A stretch of 64,000 nucleotides of DNA, from NCBI GenBank assembly GCA_012729725.1, contig JAAYCO010000094.1, forward strand, positions 557 to 64,556, read 5' to 3'. Shown one piece after another: positions 10,315-48,773 of the stretch. Both the position numbers and the translations under genes were made by a program. The notes under the pieces are model-generated. The model was given only the letters and a program-made list of their open reading frames with translations, did not search any database and was not told the DNA's origin. This DNA is from Planctomycetota bacterium (GTDB lineage: Bacteria > Planctomycetota > Phycisphaerae > SM23-33). Positions within the stretch are counted from its first letter, which is position 1. Each line of letters starts with the position of its first letter.

Positions 10315-11458
10315 CGCCGCCATCCTCGCGGCCGGACCTGAACTCGCTCCACTGCCGGGCGAGATATTCCGCCAATCGTCGCCTGCATAAGGCCGAGTCG
10401 AACCGGCAGGCGTTGCGGCGAATCACCCGTTCGTCCGGTCGCGGCAGTTGCTCGAAATGCTCCACCGCCTGGACAATCGCATCGGGAGTGGGGGAATCGA
10501 AGAAAACGCCGGTTTCACGGTCGATTACTATTTCCGCGCTGCCGCCGTGGTTAAGGACAATCGCCGGGCAGCCGCAGGCTTGGGCCTCCACCGTGGTAAT
10601 GCCAAAGTCTTCTGATGCGGCGAAAACAAAGGCCTTGGCCTTGCGCATGTAGTCTCGCAGGGCCTCGCGGGATTGCCACCCCAGGAATTCGATGTTGGGT
10701 CCGGCAAGACGGCGTAATTGCTTCATCTGCCCGCCCTCGCCGATAACAACCAGACGCCTGTGGGGCATCATGCCGAAAGCCCGGACAACTGCATCAACCC
10801 TTTTGTAAGGCGCCAGGCGGGATGCGCACAGGTAGAAGTTCCGGCGCTTCTGGCCGGGGGTGAAATACGCGACGTCCACCGGCGGGTAAACAACCTCGCT
10901 CTGTCGCCTGTACGCCTTGCGGATTCTGCCGGCCACGAATTGAGAATTGGCAATAAAACTGTCAACGCCGTTAGCCGTGCGCGAATCCCACATTCTCAGG
11001 TAGTGAAGCATCGCCCTTGCAAGAAGTCCGCGTGCGCCGTGGTCCAGACCGGACTTCTGCAGGTACTCGTGCTGAAGATCCCAGGCATATCTCATCGGCG
11101 AATGGCATATGCACACATGCAACTGGTTCCCTGATGTAATGACGCCCTTGGCCACCGCGTGCGAGTTGGAGATGACCATGTCATAGCCGGTCATGTCGAA
11201 CTGCTCCACGGCCCAGGGCATGAGCGGCAGATAGCTTCTGAACTTGCGCCTGGCCAGCGGCAGTCGCTGAATGAAGCTGGTGCGAACCACTCTGCCGCCC
11301 AGAAACCCGCGATGGGCATGGGGCATGAAGTCCACGATGGCGAAGACATCAGCCTGCGGCAGGACGCCAAGCACCTCGGCGAGATATCTCTCAGATCCCA
11401 GAGGCGTCTCCAGCCACTCATGTACGACTGCGACCCGCAGATGTTGAAGGTCATTCAT
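10265..11458 (-). CDS. Glycosyltransferase family 4 (GT-B fold)
   Basis: The C-terminal EDFGITTVEAQACGCPAIVLNHGGSAEIVIDRETG is the GT1/GT4 EX7E region. Start taken at internal ATG (MNDLQHLRVAVVHEW). Confidence 0.8.
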   Translation of the reverse strand: MNDLQHLRVAVVHEWLETPLGSERYLAEVLGVLPQADVFAIVDFMPHAHRGFLGGRVVRTSFIQRLPLARRKFRSYLPLMPWAVEQFDMTGYDMVISNSHAVAKGVITSGNQLHVCICHSPMRYAWDLQHEYLQKSGLDHGARGLLARAMLHYLRMWDSRTANGVDSFIANSQFVAGRIRKAYRRQSEVVYPPVDVAYFTPGQKRRNFYLCASRLAPYKRVDAVVRAFGMMPHRRLVVIGEGGQMKQLRRLAGPNIEFLGWQSREALRDYMRKAKAFVFAASEDFGITTVEAQACGCPAIVLNHGGSAEIVIDRETGVFFDSPTPDAIVQAVEHFEQLPRPDERVIRRNACRFDSALCRRRLAEYLARQWSEFRSGREDGGAIESRRAATAVQGSPR

Positions 11459-11534
11459 CGGTCGAATTGTAGCGCCAGGCGTAGTTGATCCACGCCGGAA
11501 CCTGCCGACGCGCAATGCGCCGCTTTCAAGACTG

Positions 11535-11569
11535 TTGACGGCAAGAAGGCTCATGGTAGAATCAGTATC
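11535..11569 (+). promoter_or_regulatory. Sigma70-like promoter, TTGACG-16-(TGg)TAGAAT, upstream of the regulator/Hyf-like operon
   Basis: ttgacggcaagaaggctcatggtagaat is read directly. GAGAGG SD and the ATG follow about 35 nt downstream. Confidence 0.3.
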
Positions 11570-11604
11570 CTTAATTTCCTCTAGTTGGCCACAGAAGAGA
11601 GAGG

Positions 11605-12306
11605 ATGAGAAAAATGAGACTACGTGTCCGAGATGCGGCCCAGTTACTGGACGTTTCGGAAAAGACCGTCTACAGATGGATCAGCCAGAACTCGCTGCCG
11701 GTGCACCGCGTGAACGATCAGTATCGTTTCAATCGGGCCGAGCTGCTGGAGTGGGCCTCTTCTCAGCGAATCGCCGTCTCACCCAAGATGCTGGAAGAGC
11801 CGGAGGATGCGTTTATCCCGTCGCTGGCAGAGGCGATGAGGGCCGGGGGCATTCACTACCGTGTTGACGGCGCCGACAAACCCTCCGCGCTTCGTCACGT
11901 GGTTGAGGTTCTGCCGCTGCCCGAGGGTGTTGACCGCGACTTCTTGTTGCAGGTTCTGCTTGCCAGGGAGTCGGTCGGTTCGACCGCCATCGGAAACGGC
12001 ATAGCAATTCCTCATGTTCGCAATCCTATCACATTGCACGTGGACAAGCCGATGGTTGCCCTTACGTTCCTGGCCAACGGCATAGATTTCCAGGCGATGG
12101 ACGGCAAGCCGGTGAACACGCTGTTCACGATAATCAGCCCGACGATCAAGGCGCACCTCAACTTGTTGTCTAAGCTGGCCTACGGCCTCAAAGGCTCCGC
12201 CTTTGCCGATGCCGTGAAGGCGCAGGATTCGCGCGACGAGCTTTTCCGATGTGCGGCGGACCTGGACCAGCAGATAGCCTCAGCCATGCCGGAAACAGGA
12301 AAGTGA
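11605..12306 (+). CDS. Two-domain regulator: an excisionase/MerR-type HTH fused to a PTS EIIA type-2 (fructose/PtsN-like) domain
   Basis: LLDVSEKTVYRWISQNSLPVHRVNDQYRFNRAELLEW is the HTH. ARESVGSTAIGNGIAIPHVRNP is the EIIA-2 phosphorylatable-His motif. Its stop at 12304-12306 is 1 nt before the next ATG at 12308. Confidence 0.75.
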   Translation: MRKMRLRVRDAAQLLDVSEKTVYRWISQNSLPVHRVNDQYRFNRAELLEWASSQRIAVSPKMLEEPEDAFIPSLAEAMRAGGIHYRVDGADKPSALRHVVEVLPLPEGVDRDFLLQVLLARESVGSTAIGNGIAIPHVRNPITLHVDKPMVALTFLANGIDFQAMDGKPVNTLFTIISPTIKAHLNLLSKLAYGLKGSAFADAVKAQDSRDELFRCAADLDQQIASAMPETGK

Positions 12307-12307
12307 G

Positions 12308-14290
12308 ATGAGTCCCATCCTGTTATCCGCAGCCGTGTGCTTTCTCCTGGCGGGAGCGGTTCTCTGCGCGATGCTCTCTCGCGCGAAGGCCGCCAACGCC
12401 ATCGGCGGCATAGTCGCGGTAGTTGGCGCAGCGGTGGCGATTGCCTCAGCCGTACATGCCTTGCAGACAGGCGATGAGACGCTGCAACTGCCGTGGAGCG
12501 TTCCGTTTGGCAGCTTCCACATTTCCATAGACGGCCTCAGCGCGTTCTTCATTCTTGCGATTTCGGCGGTCTGCGCCTTGGGCGGGGTGTACGGGGTATC
12601 TTACCTGCGGCACTACAAGGGCAAGAATCTTGGCGCGTCGTGGTTCTTCTTCAACCTGCTGTTCGCGTCGATGCTTATGGTGGTTACCGCGTGGAATGCG
12701 GTTCTTTTTCTAGCTGCCTGGGAGGTGATGTCGCTTTCGTCATTCTTCCTTGTGACATTTGAGCACGAGCGCCAGGAGGTTCGCAAAGCCGGCTGGGTTT
12801 ACCTGATATCGGCGCATGTGGGCATGGCGTGTCTTCTGGCGATGTTCATCCTGCTGGGTGGCCAGAATCAGGTTATGGATTTCGATCAACTGGCTCTTCC
12901 TCCGGGCGTCAGTGCCGCCGCCATCTTTCTGCTTGCGGTTGTCGGGTTTGGCGCGAAGGCCGGCATTTGTCCGATGCACGTCTGGTTGCCCGACGCGCAC
13001 CCCGCGGCGCCCTCGCACGTTTCGGCCGTCATGAGCGGCGTGATGATCAAGACCGGCATATACGGCATTCTGAGGACGCTGACGTTTTTGGGATCGCCCG
13101 CATCCTGGCCGGGGTGGTGGGGGTGGACTCTGCTTGTCGCCGGGGCTATCACCGGCGTCGTGGGCATTCTTTTCGCCTTGGCGCAGCACGACATGAAGCG
13201 CGTGCTTGCTTATTCCAGTATCGAGAATGTCGGCGTGATCTGTCTGGGACTCGGCCTGTGGATGATCGGCTCAGCAGGCGGCAACACGATTATCGCCGCA
13301 TTGGGCCTGATAGGGGCGCTTCTGCATGTATGGAACCATGCGATTTTCAAGAGCCTGATGTTCCTTGGCGCCGGGGCTGTTGTCCACGCCACAGGAACTC
13401 GAAACATCGAGCAGCTTGGCGGCCTGCTCAAGCCGATGAAGCACACTGGCGTTGCATTTGCGATTGGCTCCATCGCCATCTGCGGGCTGCCTCCGTTCAA
13501 TGGCTTTGTTGGCGAGTTTCTGATCTACGCATCCGCTTTTGGCGGCATCGTGGGCCTGGGGGGCTCAGCGCCCATAGCCTGCCTGCTGGCGATTGCCGCT
13601 CTGGCTCTGATAGGTGGTTTGGCTGCGGTGTGTTTCACCAGGCTCTTCGGCATTATGTTCCTTGGCGAGCCTCGCAGCGAGGTGGCTCGTCATGCTCACG
13701 AGGCGGGCGTTTCGATGCGGGTAGTGCTTTGGATTCTGGCTGGGGCGTGCGTGCTTGTGGGCCTCGTCGGACCGCTCGTTGCGGGCGTTGCGGCTCTTGC
13801 CGCCGAAGATCTTCTGCCCTCAACCGGCCTTGATATCGGGCCGAGTCTTGGCCTGCTGTGGCGCATCAGCGGCGCCTCGGCTGGGCTAATTGTGTTCGCT
13901 GGGGCGTTCTGGCTGCTGCGGCGACGGCTGCATGCCGGCCGGCCAATTGAAAAAGCCGGAACATGGGATTGCGGTTACGCCGAGCCTACTTCTCGAATGC
14001 AGTACACGGCGTCTTCATTCTCCTGGCCGGTGATCGACATGTTCCGCCATGTATTGCGCCCGACGCTCACTCGTCAGTTGCCATCGGGGCCCTTCCCCGG
14101 CAGGGCGCACCTGACCAGCCGGACGCATGACATCTTCATGCGATTCTTCTACGTGCCGCTGTTCGCCATGGCGCAGCGCCTGGGCCAGAGCTTGCGGTGG
14201 GTTCAACACGGCCGCAACCAGGTGTACGTGCTGTACATCGCAGTCACGCTGCTGGCGCTGCTGCTGTGGAAGCTGGGGACGGAGCAATGA
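12308..14290 (+). CDS. Hydrogenase-4 component B-like / NuoL-MrpA-type antiporter-like membrane subunit, 660 aa
   Basis: About 15 TM helices with the NuoL/HyfB core (WLPDAHPAAPSHVSAVMSGVMIKTGIYG, YSSIENVGVI). Length matches HyfB. Confidence 0.85.
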   Translation: MSPILLSAAVCFLLAGAVLCAMLSRAKAANAIGGIVAVVGAAVAIASAVHALQTGDETLQLPWSVPFGSFHISIDGLSAFFILAISAVCALGGVYGVSYLRHYKGKNLGASWFFFNLLFASMLMVVTAWNAVLFLAAWEVMSLSSFFLVTFEHERQEVRKAGWVYLISAHVGMACLLAMFILLGGQNQVMDFDQLALPPGVSAAAIFLLAVVGFGAKAGICPMHVWLPDAHPAAPSHVSAVMSGVMIKTGIYGILRTLTFLGSPASWPGWWGWTLLVAGAITGVVGILFALAQHDMKRVLAYSSIENVGVICLGLGLWMIGSAGGNTIIAALGLIGALLHVWNHAIFKSLMFLGAGAVVHATGTRNIEQLGGLLKPMKHTGVAFAIGSIAICGLPPFNGFVGEFLIYASAFGGIVGLGGSAPIACLLAIAALALIGGLAAVCFTRLFGIMFLGEPRSEVARHAHEAGVSMRVVLWILAGACVLVGLVGPLVAGVAALAAEDLLPSTGLDIGPSLGLLWRISGASAGLIVFAGAFWLLRRRLHAGRPIEKAGTWDCGYAEPTSRMQYTASSFSWPVIDMFRHVLRPTLTRQLPSGPFPGRAHLTSRTHDIFMRFFYVPLFAMAQRLGQSLRWVQHGRNQVYVLYIAVTLLALLLWKLGTEQ

Positions 14291-15201
14291 TTATCCTGGC
14301 ATCAATAATCCACGTGGTGTTGGCGCTGTCGTTGTCGCCTCTGCTGATCGGCGTGATCAACCGGGTTAAGGCGAAATTTGCCGGCAGGCGGGGCCGGCCT
14401 CTGTTGCAGCTCTATTACGACCTCTGGAAGCTGCTTCACAAGGGCGCGGTCTACAGCACAACGACAACCTGGGTGTTCAGAACAGGCCCGCTGGTTGGCA
14501 TAAGCGCCGTGCTTGTTGCGATAAGTCTTGTTCCGCTTGGAAGAGTGCCTGCGCTGGCTGCCTTTGACGGCGATATCATTCTCCTTGCATACGTTCTGGG
14601 CCTGATGCGTTTCATGACGGTGCTGGCTGCTCTTGACACGGGTTCCGCGTTCGAGGGAATGGGCGCGGGAAGAGAAGTGCAGTTCTCGCTTCTGGCCGAG
14701 CCTGCGCTGCTGCTTGGCGTTGGCGCTCTTTCCATCAGCACCGGAGACTGGAGCCTTTCGGGCATATATGGTTCGCTGTTTGCGGACGGCCTGGCCGCTG
14801 TTGCCCCCACGGCTGTGATGGTCGCCGCAAGCCTGCTGATCATCCTGCTTGCCGAGAACTCGCGCATTCCAGTTGACGATCCAAACACTCACCTTGAACT
14901 GACGATGATTCACGAGGTTATGGTGCTGGACCATGGCGGCGTTGACCTGGCGTTCATTCAGTATGCCGCAGCCCTGAAGCTGTGGGTGTTCTGCGCCCTG
15001 TTCGTCGGCGTTGCTTTGCCTTTGCAGATGCACTGGCCGCTGGTGGATCTTGCCTTCGGTATGGCAGGGGTGTTCATCGTCGCTATGGTCATCGGGGTGA
15101 TCGAGAGCACCATGGCAAGGCTAAGGCTTCTTCGCGTGCCGCAGATGCTCGTTGTCTCGGCGGTGCTGGCGATGATCGCCGTCCTATGGGCGTTGAGGTA
15201 A
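14287..15201 (+). CDS. HyfC/HycD/NuoH-like membrane subunit
   Basis: MIILASIIHVVLALSLSPLLIGVINRVKAKFAGRRGRPLLQLYYDLWKL is a NuoH/HycD-type N-terminus. The ATGA overlap with the upstream stop indicates coupling. Confidence 0.85.
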   Translation: MIILASIIHVVLALSLSPLLIGVINRVKAKFAGRRGRPLLQLYYDLWKLLHKGAVYSTTTTWVFRTGPLVGISAVLVAISLVPLGRVPALAAFDGDIILLAYVLGLMRFMTVLAALDTGSAFEGMGAGREVQFSLLAEPALLLGVGALSISTGDWSLSGIYGSLFADGLAAVAPTAVMVAASLLIILLAENSRIPVDDPNTHLELTMIHEVMVLDHGGVDLAFIQYAAALKLWVFCALFVGVALPLQMHWPLVDLAFGMAGVFIVAMVIGVIESTMARLRLLRVPQMLVVSAVLAMIAVLWALR

Positions 15202-15205
15202 TGCT

Positions 15206-15853
15206 ATGTCGATCCTGACTGACTTGCTGATGATGCTGCTGGTGTTGACGAACCTGCGGATGCTTGCCTCCAGCCGGGTCGCCGTGTGCATTCAGAACGT
15301 GGCGATTCAGGCGGTGGTGCTTGGCGCCATTACGTTCAGCTTGTCGGCGCACGCCGCCATAGCCGCCGGCGTGATAGTCGTGGCGATATCCACAGTGGCT
15401 GTAAAGGGCCTGGTGCTTCCCTGGCTGTTGCGACGGGCGATGAAGGGGGCCGGCATCGGCAGGGAGATCGAGCCGTTTGTTGGCTATGCGTCTTCCGTGC
15501 TGATCGGAGCAGTGCTTCTTGGCCTGTGTTTCGTGATAGCCCGGCCGCTCCGGGACACGTCGCACGCCGGGGCTTCAATGCTGATACCCGTGGCGATGTT
15601 CACCATCCTGACCGGCTTGTTCATCATCATCTCGCGACGCAAGGCGCTTACGCAGGTTCTGGGCTATCTGACGATGGAGAACGGCGTGTGCGTTTTTGGC
15701 GTGTCGCTGGCTGTGGAGGAGCCGTTGCTTGTGGAGATGGGCATCCTGCTGGATGTTCTGGTGGGCGTGTTTGTCATGGGCATTGTGATCCACCAGATCA
15801 ATCGCGAATTCGACCACATAGACACCGACCGACTGTCGGTTCTAAAGGACTGA
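15206..15853 (+). CDS. HyfE-like small membrane subunit, 215 aa
   Basis: Size, all-helical membrane character and position between the HyfC- and HyfF-like genes all fit. Confidence 0.65.
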   Translation: MSILTDLLMMLLVLTNLRMLASSRVAVCIQNVAIQAVVLGAITFSLSAHAAIAAGVIVVAISTVAVKGLVLPWLLRRAMKGAGIGREIEPFVGYASSVLIGAVLLGLCFVIARPLRDTSHAGASMLIPVAMFTILTGLFIIISRRKALTQVLGYLTMENGVCVFGVSLAVEEPLLVEMGILLDVLVGVFVMGIVIHQINREFDHIDTDRLSVLKD

Positions 15854-15857
15854 GCGA

Positions 15858-17318
15858 ATGCTACTTGCCGTCGTGCTGATTCCTGCTGTGGCGGGTCTTG
15901 CGGTGATGGCGCCGTTTGTGAAACGCCTGCGCCTGGCGGTTCTGCTGCTTGCAGCGGTTGGTCACGCATCAGCCGTCGCATGGATATGCAGCAGGCCGCT
16001 TGCCGACAACAACGCGGATGCGTGGATCGCCCTGGACGCGCCGGGCCGCCTCTTCCTGGCTATCACAAGCATCCTGTTTCTGGCGGCGGCGACATATGCG
16101 ATAGGCTATCTCCGAAACGAGGAAAACCGCACCACCAAGGACGCCGAGGAAGGCTTCCTCTTTCGCAACGAGCCCATGAACATTTTCATCGGCTGCCTGC
16201 TGCTGTTCCTGGCGACGATGAGCCTGGTGTGCATCAGCCAGCACCTGGGGCTTCTATGGGTGGCCGTCGAAGCCACCACGCTGGTAAGCGCGCCGCTCAT
16301 CAGCTTTCACCGTCACCATCGCAGCCTTGAGGCAACGTGGAAGTATCTGCTGATATGCTCCGTGGGCATTGCGTTGGCGCTGCTGGGCATTTTCTTCATC
16401 GCGGCGGCCGGGCAAGGCGTTGTTCATGGCATGAACATACACGCCTTGACGAAAGCCGCCGGCAAGATGGACCCCGTGTGGCTCAAGGCGGCGTTCATAT
16501 TGCTGATTGTCGGATACGGCACGAAAATGGGCCTTGCGCCCATGCACAACTGGCTGCCGGACGCTCACAGCGAATCGCCTTCGCTTGTCTCGGCGTTGCT
16601 TTCGGGCGCTCTGCTCAACTGCGCTTTTCTGGGCCTGCTTCGCGGCCAGATGGTTATGTCCGCGGCGGGGCTTGGCGAGTTCAGCGGCGGGTTGCTTGTG
16701 CTGCTGGGCCTTCTGTCCATGATCGTCGCGGCGGTGTTCATGATCCGCCAGAGCGATTACAAGCGGCTTTTAGCGTATTCCAGCGTTGAACACATGGGCA
16801 TTCTTGCAATTGGAGCCGGACTTGGCGGATTGGCTGCCACAGGCGCCATGCTTCACGCGGTGAATCATTCCTTCACCAAGGGGATGCTGTTTCTGGTTGC
16901 GGGAAATCTGCTGGCGGCCCATCGCACAAAGAATATTCATGAAGTGCGCGGCGTGCTGACAACCCTGCCAATTACAGGCTGCCTTTGGGTAGGCGGCTTT
17001 CTGGCTATCACGGGGGCTCCGCCGTTTGGCATGTTCATCAGTGAATTGACCATCCTGAAGGGCGCCTTGCAGGGCGGGCACATTGTGGTGGGTGTTGTTT
17101 ATCTCGCAGCTTTGGCTGTCATTTTCATATCCATGGCCCGGTTGATGCCGCCGATGGCGTTTGGAATTCCGGCGGCCCAGATCAAGACCAAAGAGCCGCT
17201 CTGGGCGGTTGCGCCTCCGTTGGCGCTTGGGTTGGTTGTGCTGACCATGGGACTGTACGTGCCGGAATCGCTGTGGAACGCCCTTCGAGCCGCGGCCGGC
17301 GCAATTGGAGCAAACTGA
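15858..17318 (+). CDS. HyfF/NuoN-like antiporter-like membrane subunit
   Basis: The NuoM/N family core is present: WLPDAHSESPSLVSALLSGALLN and YSSVEHMGILAIG. Confidence 0.85.
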   Translation: MLLAVVLIPAVAGLAVMAPFVKRLRLAVLLLAAVGHASAVAWICSRPLADNNADAWIALDAPGRLFLAITSILFLAAATYAIGYLRNEENRTTKDAEEGFLFRNEPMNIFIGCLLLFLATMSLVCISQHLGLLWVAVEATTLVSAPLISFHRHHRSLEATWKYLLICSVGIALALLGIFFIAAAGQGVVHGMNIHALTKAAGKMDPVWLKAAFILLIVGYGTKMGLAPMHNWLPDAHSESPSLVSALLSGALLNCAFLGLLRGQMVMSAAGLGEFSGGLLVLLGLLSMIVAAVFMIRQSDYKRLLAYSSVEHMGILAIGAGLGGLAATGAMLHAVNHSFTKGMLFLVAGNLLAAHRTKNIHEVRGVLTTLPITGCLWVGGFLAITGAPPFGMFISELTILKGALQGGHIVVGVVYLAALAVIFISMARLMPPMAFGIPAAQIKTKEPLWAVAPPLALGLVVLTMGLYVPESLWNALRAAAGAIGAN

Positions 17319-17319
17319 G

Positions 17320-18798
17320 ATGTCCGCTGAGCATCCGGCAATTATCCGAAACGCGCAGGTGGCCGATCTTGAGGCATGTCCGTGCATGTCGGCGGGAGAC
17401 TTTCGCCAGACTCTATGCGCCCGCGTGTCGGCAGGGGCAAGGCTTTCGGCGCTGTTCGCCCGGCGAAAGGCGGGGGAATCCGGCGGCAGGCTATATGCCG
17501 TGCTGGCAATGCCGGGCTCGAACAACCTGGGCCTGCTTTGCTGCGACGTGGGCGATTCATACCCTTCAATAACCGGCGATTGTCCCGCGGCTCATTGGTT
17601 CGAGCGCGAAATCGCCGAGCGTGCGGGAATTCGCCCTGAAGGCCACCCGTGGCTCAAACCTGTTCGCTTTGCTGGCAAAGATGTTGGATTGACCGACTTC
17701 TACCGCATGGACGGCAATGAAGTGCATGAAGTCGCAGTCGGCCCGGTTCACGCCGGCGTTATAGAGCCCGGCCACTTCAGGTTCCAATGTCATGGCGAAA
17801 CCGTGCACCATCTTGAGATATCGCTTGGCTACCAGCATCGCGGCATAGAAGATGCATTAATCGGCGGCCCTGACGCCAGAACGATTCATTACATAGAGCC
17901 CCTTGCCGGCGACACCACCATCGGACATGCCACTGCGTACGCAATGGCGATCGAGGCGTTGGGCGGCTCGAGGCCTTCGGCGCGGGCGCACGCCATTCGC
18001 GCCATCGCCGCCGAGTTGGAACGTCTTGCGAACCACATCGGCGACCTGGGCGCGCTTGCGGGAGATGTGGGCTTCCTTCCGACCATGAGTTACTGCGGCA
18101 GGATTCGCGGCGACGTGTTGAACTGCACGGGCGTCTTGTGCGGCAACCGCTTCGGCAGACGCCTGGTTGTGCCGGGCGGAATTATGCACGATCTTGACGA
18201 GCGGTTGTGCAAGGATCTGCTGGATCGGCTTGAAAGCATAGAGCGGGATGCAACCGATGCGATCGAACTGATGTTCAACGCGCCATCGGTCCTGGCCAGG
18301 TTCGAAGGCGCCGGCACGGTCAGCCATGAGCTGGCGAACCAACTGGGCCTCGTCGGCGTCGCGGCCCGAGCAAGCGACATCGAGTACGACGTGAGACGCG
18401 AATTCCCCTACGGCATCTACCAGTTCACGCAGATGCCGATATGCACGTGGTCCACCGGCGACTGTTTCGCAAGGGCGTATGTGCGGTGGCTCGAGGCGAA
18501 ACAATCGTTCGCCTTTGTGCGAGAGCACCTGCGGTCGCTGCCGGCGGGCGCGACGCGCCAAGGCGTTGGCGAACTTGCCGCGGGCAAGATTGTCGTCGCG
18601 CTGGTTGAAGGCTGGCGCGGCGAGATATGCCACGTCGTCGGGACCGACCAGAGCGGGAGGTTTGCGTTCTATAAGATCGTAGATCCTTCGTTCCATAACT
18701 GGTTCGGGCTGGCCATGGCATTACGAGAGCAGCAGATCTCTGACTTCCCGTTGTGCAACAAGAGTTTCAATTTGTCCTACTGCGGCCACGACTTGTAG
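17320..18798 (+). CDS. HyfG/HycE-like NuoC-NuoD fusion. It is a group-4 hydrogenase large-subunit homologue lacking all four [NiFe]-ligating cysteines.
   Basis: The NuoC part carries AHWFEREIAERAGIRPEGHPWLKP. The NuoD/large-subunit part carries GPVHAGVIEPGHFRFQCHGETV and IGYQHRGIE. Where the N-terminal RxCGxCxxxH should be, the sequence reads PLAGDTTIGHATAY. The C-terminal DPCxxC position reads VDPSFHNW. Track start 17305 is a TTG inside the upstream gene; the ATG at 17320 has a GGAG SD. Confidence 0.85.
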   Translation: MSAEHPAIIRNAQVADLEACPCMSAGDFRQTLCARVSAGARLSALFARRKAGESGGRLYAVLAMPGSNNLGLLCCDVGDSYPSITGDCPAAHWFEREIAERAGIRPEGHPWLKPVRFAGKDVGLTDFYRMDGNEVHEVAVGPVHAGVIEPGHFRFQCHGETVHHLEISLGYQHRGIEDALIGGPDARTIHYIEPLAGDTTIGHATAYAMAIEALGGSRPSARAHAIRAIAAELERLANHIGDLGALAGDVGFLPTMSYCGRIRGDVLNCTGVLCGNRFGRRLVVPGGIMHDLDERLCKDLLDRLESIERDATDAIELMFNAPSVLARFEGAGTVSHELANQLGLVGVAARASDIEYDVRREFPYGIYQFTQMPICTWSTGDCFARAYVRWLEAKQSFAFVREHLRSLPAGATRQGVGELAAGKIVVALVEGWRGEICHVVGTDQSGRFAFYKIVDPSFHNWFGLAMALREQQISDFPLCNKSFNLSYCGHDL

Positions 18799-18801
18799 GA
18801 C

Positions 18802-19575
18802 ATGGAGATTTGGATGTTGGGCATACTCAAATCGCGTTTGAGGCAGAAGCATCGGACGATGCTGTACCCCAAAGGCCCCGCGCCGCAACTGCCAGAGAGG
18901 TTTGTGGGCCGGCCCACAGTCGCCGCCAATAAATGTGGCGATTGCAATGTGTGTGCGGCTGCCTGTCCGGTGGGGGCTATTACAAAAGGCCCCGATGGTT
19001 GTCCCAGGATCGATACGGGCAAATGCCTGTTCTGCGGCGCATGCGAACGATCATGCGAAGGCGGGATCATTAAATTCACGTCGGAATACCGACTGGCGGC
19101 GGCCTCGCGCGACGACCTGGTTGTCGGCCCCGACTCGCCGCGGTACATGCCGGCAAGAAATGATCTGGCGGCCAGGCTGTTTGGCAAGTCGCTGAAACTG
19201 CGTCAGGTCTCGGCGGGCGGCTGCAACGCGTGCGAGGCCGATTCCAACGTCTTGTGCACGCTTGCATGGGACCTGGGCAGATTCGGCATAGACTTCGTTG
19301 CCTCCCCCCGGCACGCCGACGGCCTGCTGATAACGGGCCCGGTTACGAGGAACATGGCGCTTGCCCTTCGCAAAACGTACGACGCCGTGCCGCAGCCGAG
19401 GATTGTGATCGCGGTCGGATCATGCGCAATTAGCGGCGGTCCGTTTGCGGGCCTTAAAGAGCAAAACAATGGAGCGGCAGGGATATTGCCCGTGGATCTT
19501 TTCATCCCCGGATGTCCGCCGCACCCGCTGACGATTCTTGACGGCCTGCTGCGTTTCCTCGGCAGGGTGGAGTGA
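18802..19575 (+). CDS. Fusion of a compact 2x[4Fe-4S] ferredoxin (HyfH/NuoI-like) with a hydrogenase-type small subunit (HyfI/HycG/NuoB-like)
   Basis: CGDCNVCAAACP and CLFCGACERSCEGG are the two ferredoxin motifs. GGCNACEAD (CxxCE), VGSCAISGGPF and IPGCPPHP are the small-subunit proximal-cluster ligands. Confidence 0.8.
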   Translation: MEIWMLGILKSRLRQKHRTMLYPKGPAPQLPERFVGRPTVAANKCGDCNVCAAACPVGAITKGPDGCPRIDTGKCLFCGACERSCEGGIIKFTSEYRLAAASRDDLVVGPDSPRYMPARNDLAARLFGKSLKLRQVSAGGCNACEADSNVLCTLAWDLGRFGIDFVASPRHADGLLITGPVTRNMALALRKTYDAVPQPRIVIAVGSCAISGGPFAGLKEQNNGAAGILPVDLFIPGCPPHPLTILDGLLRFLGRVE

Positions 19576-19578
19576 CGC

Positions 19579-21519
19579 TCAGGGCAGGTTCTCTATGGAA
19601 AGAGGCTCGATTTCGTCGGCGGGAATGAACCCGAATATCCTGCTGAAGAAGAACAGTTCCGCCTCCAACGCTCGCAGAATATTCTGCGCCCGCCTGAAGC
19701 CGTGCTGTTCGCCTTCAAACGGCATATAGGCGGTGGGCACACCCTTCTTGCGAAGCGCGTCGAACATCATCTGAGCCTGATTCGGCGGCACTATCGGATC
19801 CTCAAGGCCCTGGAAGAATATCACCGGACGCTTGAGGTTCTCCACATGATGAATGGGCGAACGCTTGTGATACAGGTCGCGTCTCTGGGGGTATGGGCCG
19901 ATAAGCCTTTCGAGGTAATGAGACTCGAATTTGTGCGTCTCCCTGGCCAGAATCTCGCAATCGCTGACGCCGAAATGGCTTGACCCTGCCGCGAAAACGT
20001 CGCGGAATGTCATTGCCGCCAGCACCGTGTACCCGCCGGCGCTGCCGCCGGTGATGGCCAGGCGATTGCGGTCCACTTTGCCGGCTTGTGCAAGATGAAG
20101 CGCGCCGGCGCAGACATCATCAACGTCGGCTTCGCCCCAGACGGTGTTGAGGCTCTGACGATAGGCCCTGCCGTAACCGCTGCTGCCGCGGTAGTTGACA
20201 TCCAGCACGGCGAATCCTCGGCTGGTGTAATACTGTATGTCCAACCGAAGCGCCGCTGACGCCGACGAGGTTGGGCCGCCATGCACCTTCACGATCAGCG
20301 GAGGCAACTCGTCGTCGCCGCCCTTGTAGTTGGCGTTCAGCGGCGGGTAGAACAGACCATGAGCCCGTGCGCCGCCGGCGGTGTCGAATGTTATCGGCTC
20401 GGGCGGCGAAAGGTAGTTGTCGTCCCATTCCAGGTGTGTCGCCTGTCGCAGCACTTCAATATTCCTGTTGCGCAGGTTCATCTTCACTATCGAGCTTGGC
20501 TCGCGCGAAGAAGCGCCGATGAAGTAGCCGAATGCCCCGCCTACTCGAACATCGGATATTGCCGTATACGGCGTCTGAATGTCGGAAAGATCGCCTGTCG
20601 GCACGTCCAGTTCCGCCAGGCGCCAGATGCCGTCCTTGCTGTACGCGCAGAGGATGAACAGCGGATTGACAAAGTCGTAGCACGACTGTCCCAGCCGCCA
20701 AAGAGGATAGCCAAACTCGCCTTCGATCTTTGTCAACGCCTCGACCTTGCCGTCGCGCAGGCAGTGGATGTTCCACCAGCCGTTCCATCGGTCGCTGACG
20801 AAATGCAGCACGTGGTCGCCGCTCCAGCGTGGTTGAAGCACTGCTTCTCCCTCACCGCCGGCGACCTTCGCCTGCTTACCGACGCCGCCGTCTCTGAGCA
20901 GTTCGGCCGTCCATAGCTCGGCCGCGTCCCAGGGCATGTCCGGGTGGTTCCACGTAAGGTAGGCAAGCATTTTGCCGTCGGCGGAGATTCTGGGCGCTGC
21001 GTAAAAATCGTTGCCCGAAACCAGGATGTCGCCCACGCCGCCATTGAGCGTGCTTACCGAGACAATGCTGTTGAGGGGCTCGGGGCCGCCGTGGTCCTCG
21101 CGGATGCAGATGACTCGCCCCATGTAGGGGTCGAACACGCCATCGGCGTACCTCGTGCTGTCCTGTGGCGTTAAGGCTGACGCCTCGCCGATGTCCTGGG
21201 CGTGGTACAACCTCTGGTCGTCGTAGTTGCTGAACACGGCGCCGCCGTAGACGACTGCATATGAGCCGCCGCCGTATTCATGAACCCTTGTGCGGGCGTT
21301 AAGCGGCGGGGGGTTGACCTCGCGTCGCGAGCCGTCGGGCGTTCGGCGGATCACGACGTATCTGCCGCCTTCGAGAGGGCGCAACTCATTCCAGTACACA
21401 TCGGGTCCGTCAACGTGAATCTCTCCCAGGCCAAGCATCGACGATGAGATCAACTCGGCAGTAATAGGCGACTGCCATGTTCCGTACTTCGCCACAAGCT
21501 TGTCCTGACGGGCGGTCAT
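19579..21519 (-). CDS. S9 family serine peptidase (prolyl oligopeptidase/acylaminoacyl peptidase type) with an N-terminal beta-propeller
   Basis: GGSAGGY is the GxSxGG nucleophile elbow. C-terminal Asp/His regions and a WD/TolB-like propeller are present. Start taken at MTARQDKL, which gives an ATGA overlap with the upstream gene. Confidence 0.85.
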   Translation of the reverse strand: MTARQDKLVAKYGTWQSPITAELISSSMLGLGEIHVDGPDVYWNELRPLEGGRYVVIRRTPDGSRREVNPPPLNARTRVHEYGGGSYAVVYGGAVFSNYDDQRLYHAQDIGEASALTPQDSTRYADGVFDPYMGRVICIREDHGGPEPLNSIVSVSTLNGGVGDILVSGNDFYAAPRISADGKMLAYLTWNHPDMPWDAAELWTAELLRDGGVGKQAKVAGGEGEAVLQPRWSGDHVLHFVSDRWNGWWNIHCLRDGKVEALTKIEGEFGYPLWRLGQSCYDFVNPLFILCAYSKDGIWRLAELDVPTGDLSDIQTPYTAISDVRVGGAFGYFIGASSREPSSIVKMNLRNRNIEVLRQATHLEWDDNYLSPPEPITFDTAGGARAHGLFYPPLNANYKGGDDELPPLIVKVHGGPTSSASAALRLDIQYYTSRGFAVLDVNYRGSSGYGRAYRQSLNTVWGEADVDDVCAGALHLAQAGKVDRNRLAITGGSAGGYTVLAAMTFRDVFAAGSSHFGVSDCEILARETHKFESHYLERLIGPYPQRRDLYHKRSPIHHVENLKRPVIFFQGLEDPIVPPNQAQMMFDALRKKGVPTAYMPFEGEQHGFRRAQNILRALEAELFFFSRIFGFIPADEIEPLSIENLP

Positions 21520-23753: not shown

Positions 23754-25085
23754 CTACCACTTGAGCGATTTTCGCAGCGCTTGATAGCCAAGGTGCGCAA
23801 GGAGGTTGTCCAGCAGCACCAGGGCCGTGAAGTTCTCGGCGACGGGCCAGATGCGCCCGACTATGGTGGGGTCTCTTCGCGTTATCGCCGCAAGCTGCTT
23901 GTTCTCCAGGGTGTACTTGTCGATAGTGTGCTGGGGCTTGGCGATGGTCGGCGTCGGTTTGACCGCAAGGCGAACAACGAGGGGCTGACCGGAGGACAGT
24001 CCGCCGGTAACGCCGCCTGCCTGGTTGGTCTCAAAGACAACCTTTCCGTTCTCGCTGTGCATCTGGTCGTTGCTCTGTATGCCGGTGAGATCTTTGACGG
24101 CAAAGCCAGCGCCGATCTCGACGCCCTTGACTGCCCCTATGCCGAGCATCCTGCCAAGCTCGGCGTCGAGCTTGTCAAATACCGGTTCGCCAAGTCCAAC
24201 CGGCAGGCCTGTGGCGATCACTTCCACAACACCGCCGGAGGAATCGCCCGAGGCGGTTATTGCGCCTGCTGCTTTGAGCATGTCATTCGCCGCCTCAAGA
24301 TGCGGGCAGTTCACAACGTGATGCACACCGTACCTGGAAGCTATTTCGTCAGGAATAACCGAGGGGGCCTTGGAACGGATTTCCTCTATCTCATTCTCAA
24401 CTTTGGCCATGACAGCCGCCTTTTCCAGGAAGCGCATCTCGGGGGTGATTCTGCCCTTGACGTAGATTTCCTGGTAGAAGGGGTCGGTGTCGTGGCGCAT
24501 TTGCTTATAGCGATCGGTCAACCGGAGGGCCTCGTCATGCGAAACCTCCGGCATTCTCACACCGGCCATTTCTTTGATGTACGAAAAGACGTTGATGCCA
24601 AGCGCCTTGAGCACCTTCTTCGCCACGAAGCCTGCCGCCACGATGGTGGAGGTGTACCTGCCGCTGAAAATGCCCGCGCCCACCGCGTCGTCGGCTGGGC
24701 CATACTTGACGAACGATGCGTAGGATGCATGGCCGGGGCGGGGCGTGCGGTTGGTGTCCTGATACTGCTTGATGTGCACGAAGTGGCGATCGAGGTTGGG
24801 AATGAGGATCGTCAGCGGCGTGCCGTTGGTCTGGTTGCGGTCGCCCGCGTTCTCGATTGTGTCGGCAGCGTTTACGCCGGTGTAAATGATGGGCAGATCA
24901 GGCTCTTTGCGGGGCGAAGACAGTTCGTCCGCGCCCGGCTTTCGCAGCAGCAGGTCGCCGTAGATCTCCTGCTCGCACAGCGGCATTGCGGGCGGTAACC
25001 CCTGTATCGTGGCCGAAAGCCCTTCCTGGTATGAACCGCCGGAAACGGTCACCTGAAGAAGTCTACCGAGATGGCATCCGATCAT
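23754..25085 (-). CDS. aroC: Chorismate synthase
   Basis: MIGCHLGRLLQVTVSGGSYQEGLSATIQGLPPAMP is an AroC N-terminus. Conserved GGxSGG/RxDP-type segments occur throughout. Confidence 0.9.
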   Translation of the reverse strand: MIGCHLGRLLQVTVSGGSYQEGLSATIQGLPPAMPLCEQEIYGDLLLRKPGADELSSPRKEPDLPIIYTGVNAADTIENAGDRNQTNGTPLTILIPNLDRHFVHIKQYQDTNRTPRPGHASYASFVKYGPADDAVGAGIFSGRYTSTIVAAGFVAKKVLKALGINVFSYIKEMAGVRMPEVSHDEALRLTDRYKQMRHDTDPFYQEIYVKGRITPEMRFLEKAAVMAKVENEIEEIRSKAPSVIPDEIASRYGVHHVVNCPHLEAANDMLKAAGAITASGDSSGGVVEVIATGLPVGLGEPVFDKLDAELGRMLGIGAVKGVEIGAGFAVKDLTGIQSNDQMHSENGKVVFETNQAGGVTGGLSSGQPLVVRLAVKPTPTIAKPQHTIDKYTLENKQLAAITRRDPTIVGRIWPVAENFTALVLLDNLLAHLGYQALRKSLKW

Positions 25086-25231: not shown

Positions 25232-25501
25232 ATGATGAAAGAGAAGCATACGATCCTGGGCGTTCATATCACCGATCGAGTCAAAGAGGCGGTTGCGGTT
25301 CAGAGGTTATTGACTCAGTTCGGCGAGCAGATTAAGACGCGCCTTGGCCTGCATGAGGTGGGCAGCGCAACATCCCCCAACGGCCTGCTGCTGCTGGAGA
25401 TGGTCGGCCCCGATGCGGGCATTCAGGAACTCAGCGACAAGCTTAACGCCATCGACGGCGTCGAAGTGCAATCCATGGTGTTCTTCCACCTGGCTGACTA
25501 A
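25232..25501 (+). CDS. Small ACT/NikR-C-like protein, reminiscent of the TM1266-type iron-only-hydrogenase-system regulator family; assignment is tentative
   Basis: 89 aa with a beta-alpha-beta-beta-alpha-beta pattern (ILGVHITDRVKEAVAVQRLLTQFGEQIKTRLGLHE...GLLLLEMVG). GGAGA SD precedes it. It overlaps the convergent U32 stop by 4 nt. Confidence 0.35.
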   Translation: MMKEKHTILGVHITDRVKEAVAVQRLLTQFGEQIKTRLGLHEVGSATSPNGLLLLEMVGPDAGIQELSDKLNAIDGVEVQSMVFFHLAD

Positions 25502-27924
25502 GAGGCGCCTCGCGATGGCTGTGCATCCCGTCGCTGAGCCTGGTTGAAACTGTGGATGACGTGCTGGGCGACGGCGAAATCCTCGTCCACAAACTCGATT
25601 CGATAGTCCGATACCCCTGCGGCAATCATCGCCGGCAGATGCTCCATGCCGCTGTGGGCCTGCGCGTGAAACACGGTGCAAGCCCCGTGGGCGGCGATAA
25701 CCGGATGATCCACACCCAGCCGATCGCGCAGTAGCATGTTCTGTGCTTGGCAAGCCCGGGCGCACCCCGAACAGTTGGCCGATTTGTCGGCAGCGCCAAA
25801 GAGGCAATGCGCCATGTGGAACATCGGGGCGTGCCCCCAGATGACAGGCTCAAGACTCGCGTCAGGACACGCGGCGGCCAGGGCCGCTATACCGGCATAG
25901 TCAACATCGCTGCCTGGCGATACTCTCGTTGCCCCTGCCGAAACCAGCACATTCACGCTTAACTCATTCACCGCGTTGAAGGAATGATCGGCAATGATCG
26001 CCAAGCCCGGAGCGTGCTTGAGCATCTCAAGCGTTCCGGCGTTTCTTGCCAGGAAGCATGACCAACCCGCCTGCGATATCAAACGAAGCTGCTCGTGCCC
26101 GGCATTTCGGAGCACCTGCGGACCAACGCCACCGGCGACTATGTTGTGCCGGCGAATCTGGGCAAGGGCGTCCATCGCCGACGCCATGTCGGCGATATCC
26201 ACGTATATGGTCGCAGGCGCCGGATCGTGTGACAAGGCAGCGCGAACCTGATCAATTGTTCTTGCAAGCACATGCAGCCGGATACTCTGGCGGGGTCTTT
26301 CGACGGCCAGGGCCGGCCCGCGGAGATTTTCCAGGGCGTTGGCTGTCACTTCATGCCGTGCGGATGCATGGCGTTGATTGTCCAGATCGGCCACCGCCCT
26401 TCGCCGCAGCTCGTTAAGAATGCTGGCTGGGGCCATCACGGCGCATTCGTCCACGGGCTTCCCGTCGTGCAGGATGCTGATGTTGCGAAGTTCGTACGGC
26501 GTCGCGCCCAGCCGGCCTAACTGGCGGCGGAGCACATCTTTGTCCAGGCTTTTGCCTTGCGAGGGCGCCAACGGTCCGGGCCATGATGCCTCGGCGACGA
26601 GGCCGGCGTCATCCGAAAGCACAACGCGCATCGGGCCGCCCGCCTGCAAATGCACAGTTGCATCGACCGGGCGGCGGCGGAAGACGATGTCGCGATTGAA
26701 CGTCTGGTCAAGCGCCCTGCCCAGGCTGGGATCGTCGGTCTGCCAAACGCTCGAATTGGCGGGAATGCCCGAAAGATCAACGTCGTCTCTGCCGAAGCCC
26801 AGGGCAACGACGCCACGTGAAACAAGTCTCGCTTCGTAGACTCTGCCGCCCTGAGCCTGACCGTTCTGGGGGGCGGGGTCAAATGCCAAACCATCGCCGG
26901 GTTTTGGCGGTTGCTGGCCGGCAAGCAATTCCACAACGACCGACTGTCCACTGATTGCCCTGAGGGTGGCGATCTTCACGCCTCGATTCGCCGGGTTTTC
27001 GCCCGTCACCAGTTTTCGATGATCGGCACCGTTGAGGAATCCTTCGCACAGGCCGCGGGAGAATGTGAGTTCGAGTTCTCGCAGGTGCTGTGGTTCGGGT
27101 TTCCATGGTGTGGCCGCCAAGGCGGCGTCCAGGCATTTTCGATAGAATCGCGTAGCCGCCGCCACATATCTGGCGTCCTTGAGTCTGCCTTCTATCTTGA
27201 GCGCGGACACGCCAATCTTCACCAGATCCGGCACGTGCCGCCAGGCGCAGAGGTCGAGCGGGCTGAGGGGGTAGGGCGGGGCGTCCAGTTGGCTGCCATT
27301 GCGGATGATCCGATAAGGCAGGCGGCAGGCCTGTCCGCACATGCCGCGATTGGAGCTTCGAGACCACAGCCGCCGGCTTGCCTGACACTGGCCGCTGTAC
27401 GAAATGCACATGGCCCCATGGATGAATACCTCAAGCTGCGCGCGATGTTCCTCCGCCAGGACGGCGATTTCGTCAACAGACAGCTCTCTGGCCAGAATCA
27501 CGCGTTTGACGCCCAGGTCCGCAAGCAGTGCAATGCCGTTTCCCTCGGTCTGCGTGGTCTGGGTTGATGCATGAATATCCAGGCTGGGCGCTATCTGGCG
27601 GCACAGCTTCAACAGGCCGATGTCCTGCACAATTATCGCGTCTACGCCTGCCTCGGCGGCCAAGGCAATGCTTCGGGCGGCTTCTTCAAGCTCGTCATGA
27701 AGAACGACTGTGTTAAGAGCGAGATATGCAAGGCAGTTATGGTTGTGCAGGTAGCGGACCACGTCAACCAGCTCGGTTTGGTTGAAGTTTTGGGCCCTGG
27801 CCCTGGCATTGAACCGGCGCAGGCCGAAGTAGACGGCATCGGCGCCGTTAATCACCGCTGCCTTCATGGCAGGCCAGTCTCCGGCGGGGGCTAGAAGTTC
27901 TGTAGGGGCTGACGGTTTGATCAT
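25498..27924 (-). CDS. Tandem-duplicated U32 family peptidase/hydroxylase-like protein, about 809 aa
   Basis: Two U32 cores. The first has HGAMCISYSGQCQASRRLWSRSSNRGMCGQACRLPY. The second has HAPMFHMAHCLFGAADKSANCSGCARACQ. Each carries a Cx6-7C...CxxxC Fe-S-type pattern. Start at internal ATG MIKPSAPTELLAPAGDWP. Confidence 0.75.
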   Translation of the reverse strand: MIKPSAPTELLAPAGDWPAMKAAVINGADAVYFGLRRFNARARAQNFNQTELVDVVRYLHNHNCLAYLALNTVVLHDELEEAARSIALAAEAGVDAIIVQDIGLLKLCRQIAPSLDIHASTQTTQTEGNGIALLADLGVKRVILARELSVDEIAVLAEEHRAQLEVFIHGAMCISYSGQCQASRRLWSRSSNRGMCGQACRLPYRIIRNGSQLDAPPYPLSPLDLCAWRHVPDLVKIGVSALKIEGRLKDARYVAAATRFYRKCLDAALAATPWKPEPQHLRELELTFSRGLCEGFLNGADHRKLVTGENPANRGVKIATLRAISGQSVVVELLAGQQPPKPGDGLAFDPAPQNGQAQGGRVYEARLVSRGVVALGFGRDDVDLSGIPANSSVWQTDDPSLGRALDQTFNRDIVFRRRPVDATVHLQAGGPMRVVLSDDAGLVAEASWPGPLAPSQGKSLDKDVLRRQLGRLGATPYELRNISILHDGKPVDECAVMAPASILNELRRRAVADLDNQRHASARHEVTANALENLRGPALAVERPRQSIRLHVLARTIDQVRAALSHDPAPATIYVDIADMASAMDALAQIRRHNIVAGGVGPQVLRNAGHEQLRLISQAGWSCFLARNAGTLEMLKHAPGLAIIADHSFNAVNELSVNVLVSAGATRVSPGSDVDYAGIAALAAACPDASLEPVIWGHAPMFHMAHCLFGAADKSANCSGCARACQAQNMLLRDRLGVDHPVIAAHGACTVFHAQAHSGMEHLPAMIAAGVSDYRIEFVDEDFAVAQHVIHSFNQAQRRDAQPSRGAS

Positions 27925-27997
27925 TTGTCTTGTTACGACAGGTAATAAAAAAAGGGGCCACGATTGTGGCCCCTGGTGCAACAAGGTACTGGACCGG

Positions 27998-28327
27998 CTA
28001 GTAGCGTCTGCCGCCGCCGCCAGAGCCGCCGAAGCCGCCTCTGGGGCCTCTGCCGCCGCCGCCACTGCCGCCGCGATCCTCGCGGGGCTTGGCTTCATTG
28101 ACGGTCAACGCCCTGCCGGAATAATCCTTGCCGTTTAGGGCTGCGATAGCTGCCTGAGCTTCGCTGTCCGATGACATCTCAACAAATCCAAAACCTTTGC
28201 TTCTGCCGGTCATCTTGTCCTGAATGACCGCTGCGCTCTCGACGGTGCCGTACTGGCCAAAAAGGTCCTGTAACTCGGCATCGCCAACACTGTAACTAAG
28301 GTTTCCAACATAAAGCTTCTTGCCCAT
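27998..28327 (-). CDS. RRM-type RNA-binding protein with a Gly/Arg-rich C-terminal tail
   Basis: KLYVGNLSY is RNP2 and KGFGFVEM is RNP1. A GGSGGGGRGPRGGFGG tail follows. Confidence 0.85.
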   Translation of the reverse strand: MGKKLYVGNLSYSVGDAELQDLFGQYGTVESAAVIQDKMTGRSKGFGFVEMSSDSEAQAAIAALNGKDYSGRALTVNEAKPREDRGGSGGGGRGPRGGFGGSGGGGRRY

Positions 28328-36973: not shown

Positions 36974-37068
36974 GCTTTCGCCCTTGTATCCGTCCCTAGA
37001 CGTGTTGAGAGCGTGCAGTTCATAACAAGCGATGCTTTTTGAATCATGTCTTCAGCAAGGAGAAAAGG

Positions 37069-37827: not shown

Positions 37828-37920
37828 AAGAGTCTACACTGTTGAGTTTCATTGCAGGCATTCCGCAAACCCTGGGAGGCGCAAGTCTCCCAGGGTTGAG
37901 GGGCCGATGAGGATCAGGTT

Positions 37921-38649: not shown

Positions 38650-38748
38650 TGGGGGCCTGTCAAAGCGACTTTGTGACAAGCCGTTGAAGAGCAAGTCGAG
38701 AGTCTTTTGATCCATGAAGTGCCGCAGTCAGAAAAAAGGCAGCGTCAA

Positions 38749-48679: not shown

Positions 48680-48773
48680 AATGCCCGTGGACCTCCATAG
48701 GTTCAGGTGCGAGTTGCAAAGCTTCAATTTGCTGGTTATTATACAACTATCGACGTTTGGCCGAAGGATCCAA

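Follow-up and report, generated by a model that had tools for sequence, protein, structure and literature searches.

Two described systems come closest to the operon reported here. Ehr complexes (energy-converting, or Ech-, hydrogenase-related), as treated in PMC6349859, PMC10284858 and PMC12342949, lack the Ni/Fe-coordinating residues and have no established function. The Ehr cluster of Geobacter sulfurreducens comprises ehrA-1 (NuoL-like), ehrB (NuoH-like), ehrC (HyfE-like), ehrD (HyfF-like), ehrL and ehrS (GSU0739-0745), with ehrA-2 at GSU0734. In Azorhizobium caulinodans, the hyqRBCEFGI operon has been described as encoding an 'endo-hydrogenase' (PMC2650096, PMC3357923), and its lack of the CxxC motifs has been in print since 2012. 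The DNA analyzed here (the window) is a 64-kb stretch of contig JAAYCO010000094.1 from a Planctomycetota bacterium, in which an initial annotation, made from the letters alone, had pointed to a hydrogenase-like large-subunit gene with replaced metal-binding motifs (17320-18798, + strand). We call its product EhrL, and consider it rather probable that it is the large subunit of an Ehr-type membrane complex, neither a [NiFe]-hydrogenase nor a NuoD, which is fed by a low-potential donor and translocates ions. The class of the protein, Ehr in Geobacter and Hyq in Azorhizobium, is already described, a point absent from the initial annotation; the missing NiFe cysteines of this family are also already published, and the window adds nothing categorically new to them.

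The intact open reading frame (ORF) at 17320-18798 encodes 492 amino acids, in which a domain of the NuoC type is joined to a large subunit of the HycE/NuoD type that lacks the NiFe ligands. In a Pfam scan (E ≤ 0.001), EhrL matched only Complex1_49kDa (PF00346) and Complex1_30kDa (PF00329), and gave no match to NiFeSe_Hases (PF00374). The best matches among all PDB sequences (phmmer) were Escherichia coli HycE (7z0s_E, 1.7e-34), Thermus thermophilus Nqo4 and Pyrococcus furiosus MbhL. For the N-terminal ligand motif (L1), both phmmer and a MAFFT alignment of EhrL with the full E. coli HycE, HyfG and NuoCD sequences were used. DRVCGICGFAH of HycE and HyfG and ERMCGICSFSH of MbhL align without gaps to EPLAGDTTIGH of EhrL (17896-17928, + strand), which replaces the pattern (D/E)R(V/M)CGIC..(A/S)H. 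The ligands Cys241 and Cys244 of HycE correspond to Ala196 and Thr199 (CGIC to AGDT), just as the initial annotation had read this site. We take the ligand numbering of the published structures to be Cys241/244 in HycE (with a tag offset of +12) and Cys68/71 in MbhL, and counting along the alignment agrees with it.

The C-terminal site (L2) lies elsewhere than was first proposed. SLDPCYSCTDR of HycE aligns (MAFFT) to the last 11 residues of EhrL, SFNLSYCGHDL (18763-18795, + strand), so that Cys531 and Cys534 of HycE are replaced by Ser486 and Gly489, with Cys488 between them at a non-ligand position. VDPSFHNW (18679-18702, + strand), which had been taken for the L2 replacement with Cys-to-Ser and Cys-to-Asn changes, is a conserved framework block about 30 residues upstream of the true L2, and is equivalent to RAATYANW of HycE and RTPSFAHL of NuoCD (phmmer, MAFFT). 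The conclusion that no NiFe ligand is left survives because of Ser486 and Gly489 at the true L2, not because of residues within VDPSFHNW. During maturation HycE is cleaved at Arg537, and EhrL stops exactly at that position, which means that it has no C-terminal maturation extension. The signatures of group 4 [NiFe]-hydrogenases (L1 RxCGxCxxxH, L2 DPCxxCxx(H/R) and the PF00374 domain) are all missing from EhrL.

The framework around these sites is retained. The beta1-beta2 loop, GPVHAGVIEPGHFRF (17740-17784, + strand), is conserved in the alignments, as had been stated, and is hydrogenase-like: Glu149 corresponds to Glu21 of MbhL, and Ile148 occupies the position of the quinone-binding His of NuoD. 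An AlphaFold model of EhrL, computed with a 28-sequence alignment, reached a mean predicted local distance difference test (pLDDT) of 89.5 and a predicted template modeling score (pTM) of 0.92, and confidence was low nowhere but in the beta1-beta2 loop and the final four residues, parts that would contact partner subunits. Its best fold match was again HycE (7z0s_E, template modeling score 0.85). In short, EhrL is a well-folded HycE-like large subunit in which none of the four NiFe ligand positions is a Cys, and the description of it as structurally intact but metal-site-less stands.

The replaced sites are conserved well beyond this genome. Two metagenome contigs, on which the genes are called identically, encode a protein identical to EhrL, and the best genomic relative is that of a Phycisphaerae metagenome-assembled genome (MAG; 64% identity). 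Not one of 83 large subunits, drawn from 80 genomic loci in many phyla, carries a Cys in any of the four ligand columns, so that the pattern that would have spoken against the initial annotation was not seen. His144, Ile148, Glu149, His152, Gly197, Asp198, Ser486, Tyr487, Gly489 and Asp491 are invariant in all 83, whereas the L1 columns of Ala196 (A/S/G) and Thr199 (T/S/A) vary. In 120 close homologues (61-71% identity) the rebuilt motifs, here called L1' and L2', are essentially invariant and the ligand columns Cys-free. GD(T/S)...H and DFPL(C/I)NKSFNLSY(C/S/A)G.DL persist to about 36% identity among the listed best 150 representatives of 50%-identity clusters, and L1' and L2' vary little or not at all in relatives as distant as 31-36% identity. 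As the replaced site is near-invariant across the family, it has been remodeled rather than decayed, and the former NiFe pocket is rebuilt and under strong purifying selection. The predicted pocket, which is polar and almost invariant, consists of Glu149, His144/152, Gly197-Asp198-Thr199-Thr200, His203 and Ser486-Tyr487-Cys488-Gly489-His490-Asp491. Outside the ligand columns, Cys157, Cys259, Cys274, Cys479 and Cys488 are each kept in 71-79 of the 83 homologues; Cys259 and Cys479 correspond to two of the three HyqG Cys for which conservation has been reported, whereas the third is placed differently (NCS in Hyq, SYC in the clade of the window). A pseudogene or a decaying large-subunit gene was considered and rejected in view of the intact, closely spaced ORFs and of the conservation of the family in many phyla.

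EhrL is part of a seven-gene operon on the + strand (11605-19575), whose genes are tightly packed, never more than 4 nt apart and in one case overlapping at start and stop. This self-contained operon is predicted to encode a six-subunit complex-I-like core. EhrA (12308-14290, + strand; 660 aa) is a HyfB-like (NuoL-type) antiporter-like membrane subunit, which matched Pfam Proton_antipo_M and NCBIfam hydrogenase 4 subunit B (3.7e-185, under the model cut-off). EhrB (14287-15201, + strand; 304 aa; Pfam NADHdh, 4.9e-30) is a HycD-HyfC-like (NuoH-type) membrane subunit; its ATG overlaps the stop of EhrA, and the 304-aa gene was also called on an identical metagenome contig. They are followed by EhrC (15206-15853, + strand; 215 aa), a HyfE-like membrane subunit matching the NCBIfam hydrogenase 4 membrane subunit (5.9e-28) and, weakly, Pfam Oxidored_q2, and by EhrD (15858-17318, + strand; 486 aa), a HyfF-like (NuoN/M-type) antiporter-like subunit (NCBIfam hydrogenase 4 subunit F, 3.8e-108, under the model cut-off). 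A Glu in transmembrane helix 5 and Lys residues in helices 7 and 12 define functional transporters of the NuoL/M/N type. EhrA has Glu139, Lys217 and Lys348 at these positions, conserved in 71-72 of 72 sequences, and EhrD has Glu138, Lys223 and Lys341, conserved in 59-62 of 62.

The last gene encodes the small subunit EhrS (18802-19575, + strand; 257 aa), a fusion of a HycF/NuoI-like and a HycG/MbhJ/NuoB-like part according to Pfam, NCBIfam and PDB alignments. The N-terminal domain (18802-19131; 110 residues) aligns to NuoI, HycF and MbhN and carries two CxxCxxCxxxC motifs for 2x[4Fe-4S], CGDCNVCAAAC (18934-18966) and CLFCGACERSC (19024-19056). The C-terminal domain (19171-19572) aligns best to MbhJ (1.5e-29) and then to HycG (7.7e-27). 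Its GGCNACE is aligned to SGSCNGCD of MbhJ and CGGCNGCE of HycG, in contrast to GLACCAVE of complex I, and the remaining proximal-cluster Cys lie in GSCAISGG and PGCPP. The four ligands (Cys141, Cys144, Cys208 and Cys238) align to those of MbhJ and HycG and are kept in 64-66 of 70 sequences, and all 12 iron-sulfur (FeS) cysteines are conserved. EhrS thus reads as HycF and HycG fused into one protein, with complete binding motifs for three [4Fe-4S] clusters, and the pairing of EhrL with a hydrogenase-type CxxCE small subunit, as first noted, is upheld with all four proximal-cluster Cys in place. Judging from these residues, the electron wire and the ion-translocation modules are both intact.

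Upstream of the structural genes, and separated from the EhrA start by a single base (12307), lies a gene for a 233-aa regulator (11605-12306, + strand). It combines an N-terminal helix-turn-helix (HTH) domain (HTH_17, excisionase/MerR-like; Pfam, 7.6e-15) with a C-terminal phosphotransferase system (PTS) enzyme IIA domain (PTS_EIIA_2, PtsN-like; 1.8e-23). An HTH-EIIA homologue adjoins the operon in at least 39 of the 57 related loci, from many phyla, that have upstream DNA, and at least 90% keep the G.G.A.PH motif, which includes the phosphorylatable His. The regulator is apparently co-transcribed with the Ehr structural genes, and no such link was mentioned in the Ehr/Hyq literature that we examined. 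PtsN-like proteins have been linked elsewhere to ion homeostasis. A candidate sigma-70-like promoter, TTGACG-16-TAGAAT with an extended TG (11535-11562, + strand), lies 43 nt 5' of the regulator gene and is the sole + strand match in 11300-19900; the pattern is matched no more often than in shuffled sequences, and it is the position that makes this match a candidate.

In its gene content the operon corresponds closely to that of Geobacter. The structural genes match ehrA-1, B, C, D, L and S of G. sulfurreducens one to one and in order, with the subunit set of GSU0739-0745, a large subunit that is homologous to group 4 hydrogenases without the Ni/Fe-coordinating residues, and a small subunit that keeps the four proximal [4Fe-4S] Cys. 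The large subunits of Geobacterales (Geomonas, Geobacter sp. and a Pelobacter MAG) are 54-55% identical to EhrL and have its L1' and L2' motifs, and their loci are syntenic and likewise encode a fused small subunit and an HTH-EIIA regulator; it is through these Geobacterales, and not through G. sulfurreducens itself, which was outside the loci compared, that orthology to its EhrL (GSU0743) is drawn. Geobacter-type loci differ in carrying a second NuoL-like gene (ehrA-2), often divergent beside the regulator, whereas the window has one such gene.

The Hyq operon of Azorhizobium and the rhizobia is likewise of seven genes (regulator, B, C, E, F, large and small subunit), and in its large subunit, of about 500 aa, NuoC and NuoD are fused and both CxxC motifs are lacking, as in EhrL, which also has the conserved C-terminal PLCNKSFN.SY.G.DL of the HyqG type. 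A Hyq-like large subunit from a Rhizobium plasmid (504 aa, 36% identical to EhrL) has SGDSTVAY and DFPLCNKSFNCSYSGHDL at the L1' and L2' positions. However, HyqI is a protein of 177 aa with the proximal cluster only (Cys55/58/112/152), whereas EhrS has 257 aa and an additional 2x[4Fe-4S] domain. The Rhizobium Hyq-like small subunit (L081:9384-9917) is also of 177 aa, with Cys55 and Cys58 as published for HyqI, and there is no HycF-like gene in its operon; the electron-input route therefore differs within the family. HyqR, moreover, is a short HTH protein, and the HyqR-like protein of Rhizobium has no detectable similarity to the HTH-EIIA regulator of the window (E = 0.27). In diazotrophs, Hyq is under the control of NifA.

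If EhrL works as the large subunit of an ion-translocating Ehr complex, electrons from a low-potential soluble donor, most likely reduced ferredoxin, would enter at the HycF/NuoI-like domain of EhrS, an input suggested by the alignment of this domain to NuoI, HycF and MbhN. They would then pass to the proximal cluster beside the rebuilt EhrL pocket and on to an acceptor bound there. The NuoH-like and HyfE-like subunits would link this redox reaction, possibly reversibly, to H+ or Na+ translocation by the two antiporter-like subunits. The co-transcribed HTH-EIIA regulator would probably control expression, its His being phosphorylated in a PTS(Ntr)-type relay. As for the acceptor, a membrane quinone is ranked first despite the missing canonical ligands, but only tentatively; a small soluble substrate at or near the proximal cluster, by analogy with MBS of Pyrococcus, would come second and seems rather unlikely; and H+/H2 comes third as an improbable candidate. 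The greater abundance of Ehr subunits in Geobacter on formate neither supports nor excludes any of these. Several points weigh against such a scheme. A quinone acceptor would have to do without the canonical NuoD His/Tyr pair, and the Hyq small subunit has no ferredoxin-like domain, so that the proposed input route is not universal in the family. Riflemargulisbacteria genomes are reported to carry Ehr without an identified full quinone biosynthesis pathway. The genetics of Azorhizobium attributes both H2 uptake and H2 evolution to Hyq, which, if correct, contradicts the view that these complexes are not hydrogenases.

The missing cysteines admit other explanations. The NiFe pocket may have become a quinone site, as in the 'core L-type' model of Sprecher et al., which would make the complex a ferredoxin:menaquinone, or reversible quinol:ferredoxin, oxidoreductase; we regard this as possible, though somewhat doubtful. 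The loss of all four Cys parallels NuoD, elements of the NuoH, NuoB and NuoD types are present, and Hyq, which is found in aerobic, ubiquinone-containing diazotrophs, has been modeled as a quinone-reactive core complex I. The top NCBIfam matches of the large subunit are indeed the NuoD models, but their scores fall below the cut-offs (198.5 versus 360 for NF004739; 152.3 versus 459 for TIGR01962), and the beta1-beta2 loop and the small-subunit CxxCE are of the hydrogenase type, not of the complex I type. In T. thermophilus Nqo4, the ligands of the quinone headgroup are His38, in the beta1-beta2 loop, and Tyr87. Both phmmer and MAFFT place Ile148 and Gly197 of EhrL at these positions, and both residues are invariant in the 83 homologues. 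On the aligned residues, the canonical NuoD quinone site is absent from EhrL; a non-canonical one may exist. The comparison 'as in NuoD' made in the initial annotation accordingly holds for the loss of the cysteines, but not for the quinone ligands, the hydrogenase-type Glu149 or the NuoD model scores, and the NuoD-like quinone residues that it proposed looking for did not turn up. The reported occurrence of Ehr in genomes without an identified quinone pathway, mentioned above, also speaks against a quinone reductase.

An unconventional hydrogenase, whose rebuilt and Cys-poor pocket would have kept H2 activation or production, as has been claimed for Hyq of Azorhizobium, is improbable in our view. 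Diazotrophic growth of A. caulinodans is slower once the hyq operon is deleted, Hyq has been credited with H2 recycling and with H2 evolution under microaerobic conditions, the Rhizobium Hyq-like large subunit shares its L1' and L2' motifs with EhrL, and the hydrogenase-type Glu149 and CxxCE are retained. Yet no Cys ligands for Ni and Fe are left, no maturation genes occur among the window ORFs that were scanned, and the evidence for Hyq consists of in vivo genetics in nitrogenase-active (H2-producing) cells, without enzymology; Sprecher et al. call the NiFe site of HyqG 'uncertain, if not unlikely', and one alternative reading of the Azorhizobium data is that Hyq may be a reversible quinol:ferredoxin device that feeds nitrogenase. 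Equally hard to credit, but worth stating, is that the replacement constellation is a new catalytic center fed by the proximal [4Fe-4S] cluster, either a nickel-independent H2 site or one for an unrecognized respiratory substrate, switched by a PTS(Ntr)-type signal through the HTH-EIIA regulator. Very improbable is a redox-inactive or regulatory relic, whose peripheral arm would have no more than a structural part, with the complex working as a cation antiporter of the Mrp type or as some other ion/anion transport device. Such a role would fit the two intact antiporter-like subunits, the PtsN-like regulator, the lack of a partner oxidoreductase encoded nearby and the occasional adjacency of a SulP transporter (7 of 80 loci) or a beta-carbonic anhydrase (two loci); these neighbors are rare, however, and the retention of 12 FeS Cys and about ten invariant polar pocket residues across phyla is hard to explain without redox chemistry. 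The ion-translocating, donor-fed Ehr complex is the reading that we prefer to all of these.

Relatives of the family were recognized in at least 598 species by a pattern scan of one genome per species, in Planctomycetota, Verrucomicrobiota, Desulfobacterota/Geobacterales, Acidobacteriota, Gemmatimonadota, Spirochaetota, Omnitrophota and Alphaproteobacteria, among others. Their genes keep the order regulator-B-(B)-C-E-F-L-S, which was seen in the 60-odd loci, out of 80 related ones, whose length takes in the complete operon; in the clade of the window, the operon nearly always travels with the HTH-EIIA regulator and the fused HycF-HycG small subunit. All-against-all clustering of the flanking ORFs of the 80 loci yielded no recurrent partner enzyme; apart from generic signaling proteins and the SulP transporter in 7 loci, nothing recurs. 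The SulP anion transporter adjoins the operon on the same strand in L016, L039, L044, L052, L070, L072 and L073, and the beta-carbonic anhydrase lies just 3' of it on the opposite strand at L087:7139-7771 and L011:12418-13461. Both proteins handle bicarbonate or anions, and the counts are too small to build on. A role in CO2/bicarbonate metabolism, prompted by a beta-carbonic anhydrase at one distant locus, was dropped as a main hypothesis at a count of one in 80 loci and none in the window. A Geobacteraceae MAG (L028:13248-20566) and a Verrucomicrobia MAG (L042:2247-9983) each have two complete, divergent Ehr-type operons side by side, with large subunits about 36-37% identical to EhrL and Cys-less at the ligand columns.

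The surroundings of the operon in the window were surveyed in a gene-content scan that took in 37 ORFs across the 64 kb, not every ORF. The operon is flanked by unrelated genes on the opposite strand, for a GT4 glycosyltransferase and an S9 peptidase, and the other ORFs scanned are housekeeping and polysaccharide-utilization genes. Among the 37 ORFs we could not find hyp, hycI, formate dehydrogenase or NuoE/F genes, nor, near the operon, HyfA, HyfD, fdhF or any partner oxidoreductase. A formate hydrogenlyase, or a supercomplex of formate dehydrogenase and Ehr (PMC6349859, PMC7894505), was rejected, with no formate dehydrogenase or NuoE/F among these ORFs and no recurring partner in the flanks of related loci. 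The window operon is a clear and compact case, a single operon that comes without a partner enzyme. Elsewhere in the window, genes at 37039-40353 (+ strand) and 46721-48973 (- strand) encode PEP-CTERM/Laminin_G_3, N-terminal-methylation (prepilin-like) and CBM_4_9 proteins and a GH127 arabinofuranosidase, a content consistent with a polysaccharide-degrading organism of the Planctomycetota/Verrucomicrobiota type. An 866-aa protein with tandem peptidase U32 and DUF3656 domains is encoded at 25498-28098 (- strand), beside chorismate synthase (23754-25085). U32 proteins in other bacteria include O2-independent quinone hydroxylases, and this one might bear on the quinone metabolism of the source organism.

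Compared with the better-known relatives, EhrL is closest in both sequence and fold to the large subunits of E. coli group 4a, formate hydrogenlyase (Hyc) and Hyf, as shown by the HycE match above. The window operon shares with them the membrane subunit types, the hydrogenase-type CxxCE and the beta1-beta2 loop, but it lacks the four NiFe Cys and the HycI-processed extension, and its HycF and HycG parts are fused. NuoD (Nqo4, the 49-kDa subunit) has the same fold and has likewise lost the NiFe Cys, whereas its partner NuoB has a tandem CC in place of the CxxC in the partner of EhrL. Mbx/MBS of P. furiosus, which the literature lists as one type of hydrogenase-related complex, is also derived from a hydrogenase, pumps ions and has a degenerate NiFe site, its FeS wire being kept and its substrate changed. 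However, MbsL (6u8y_L) matches EhrL much more weakly (E = 6.6e-17) than HycE or MbhL does, and MBS differs in its multi-subunit membrane modules of the Mrp type and in its substrate, sulfur, to which nothing in the window points. For the former NiFe pocket, the motif pair GD(T/S)xxxH and NKSFNLSY(C/S)GxDL can be given; at its decisive positions this pocket resembles neither a hydrogenase nor NuoD. These conserved motifs and residues offer defined targets for mutagenesis in a tractable host, for instance Geobacter. The Ehr/Hyq complexes, present in hundreds of species of many phyla, stand between the membrane-bound hydrogenases and respiratory complex I.

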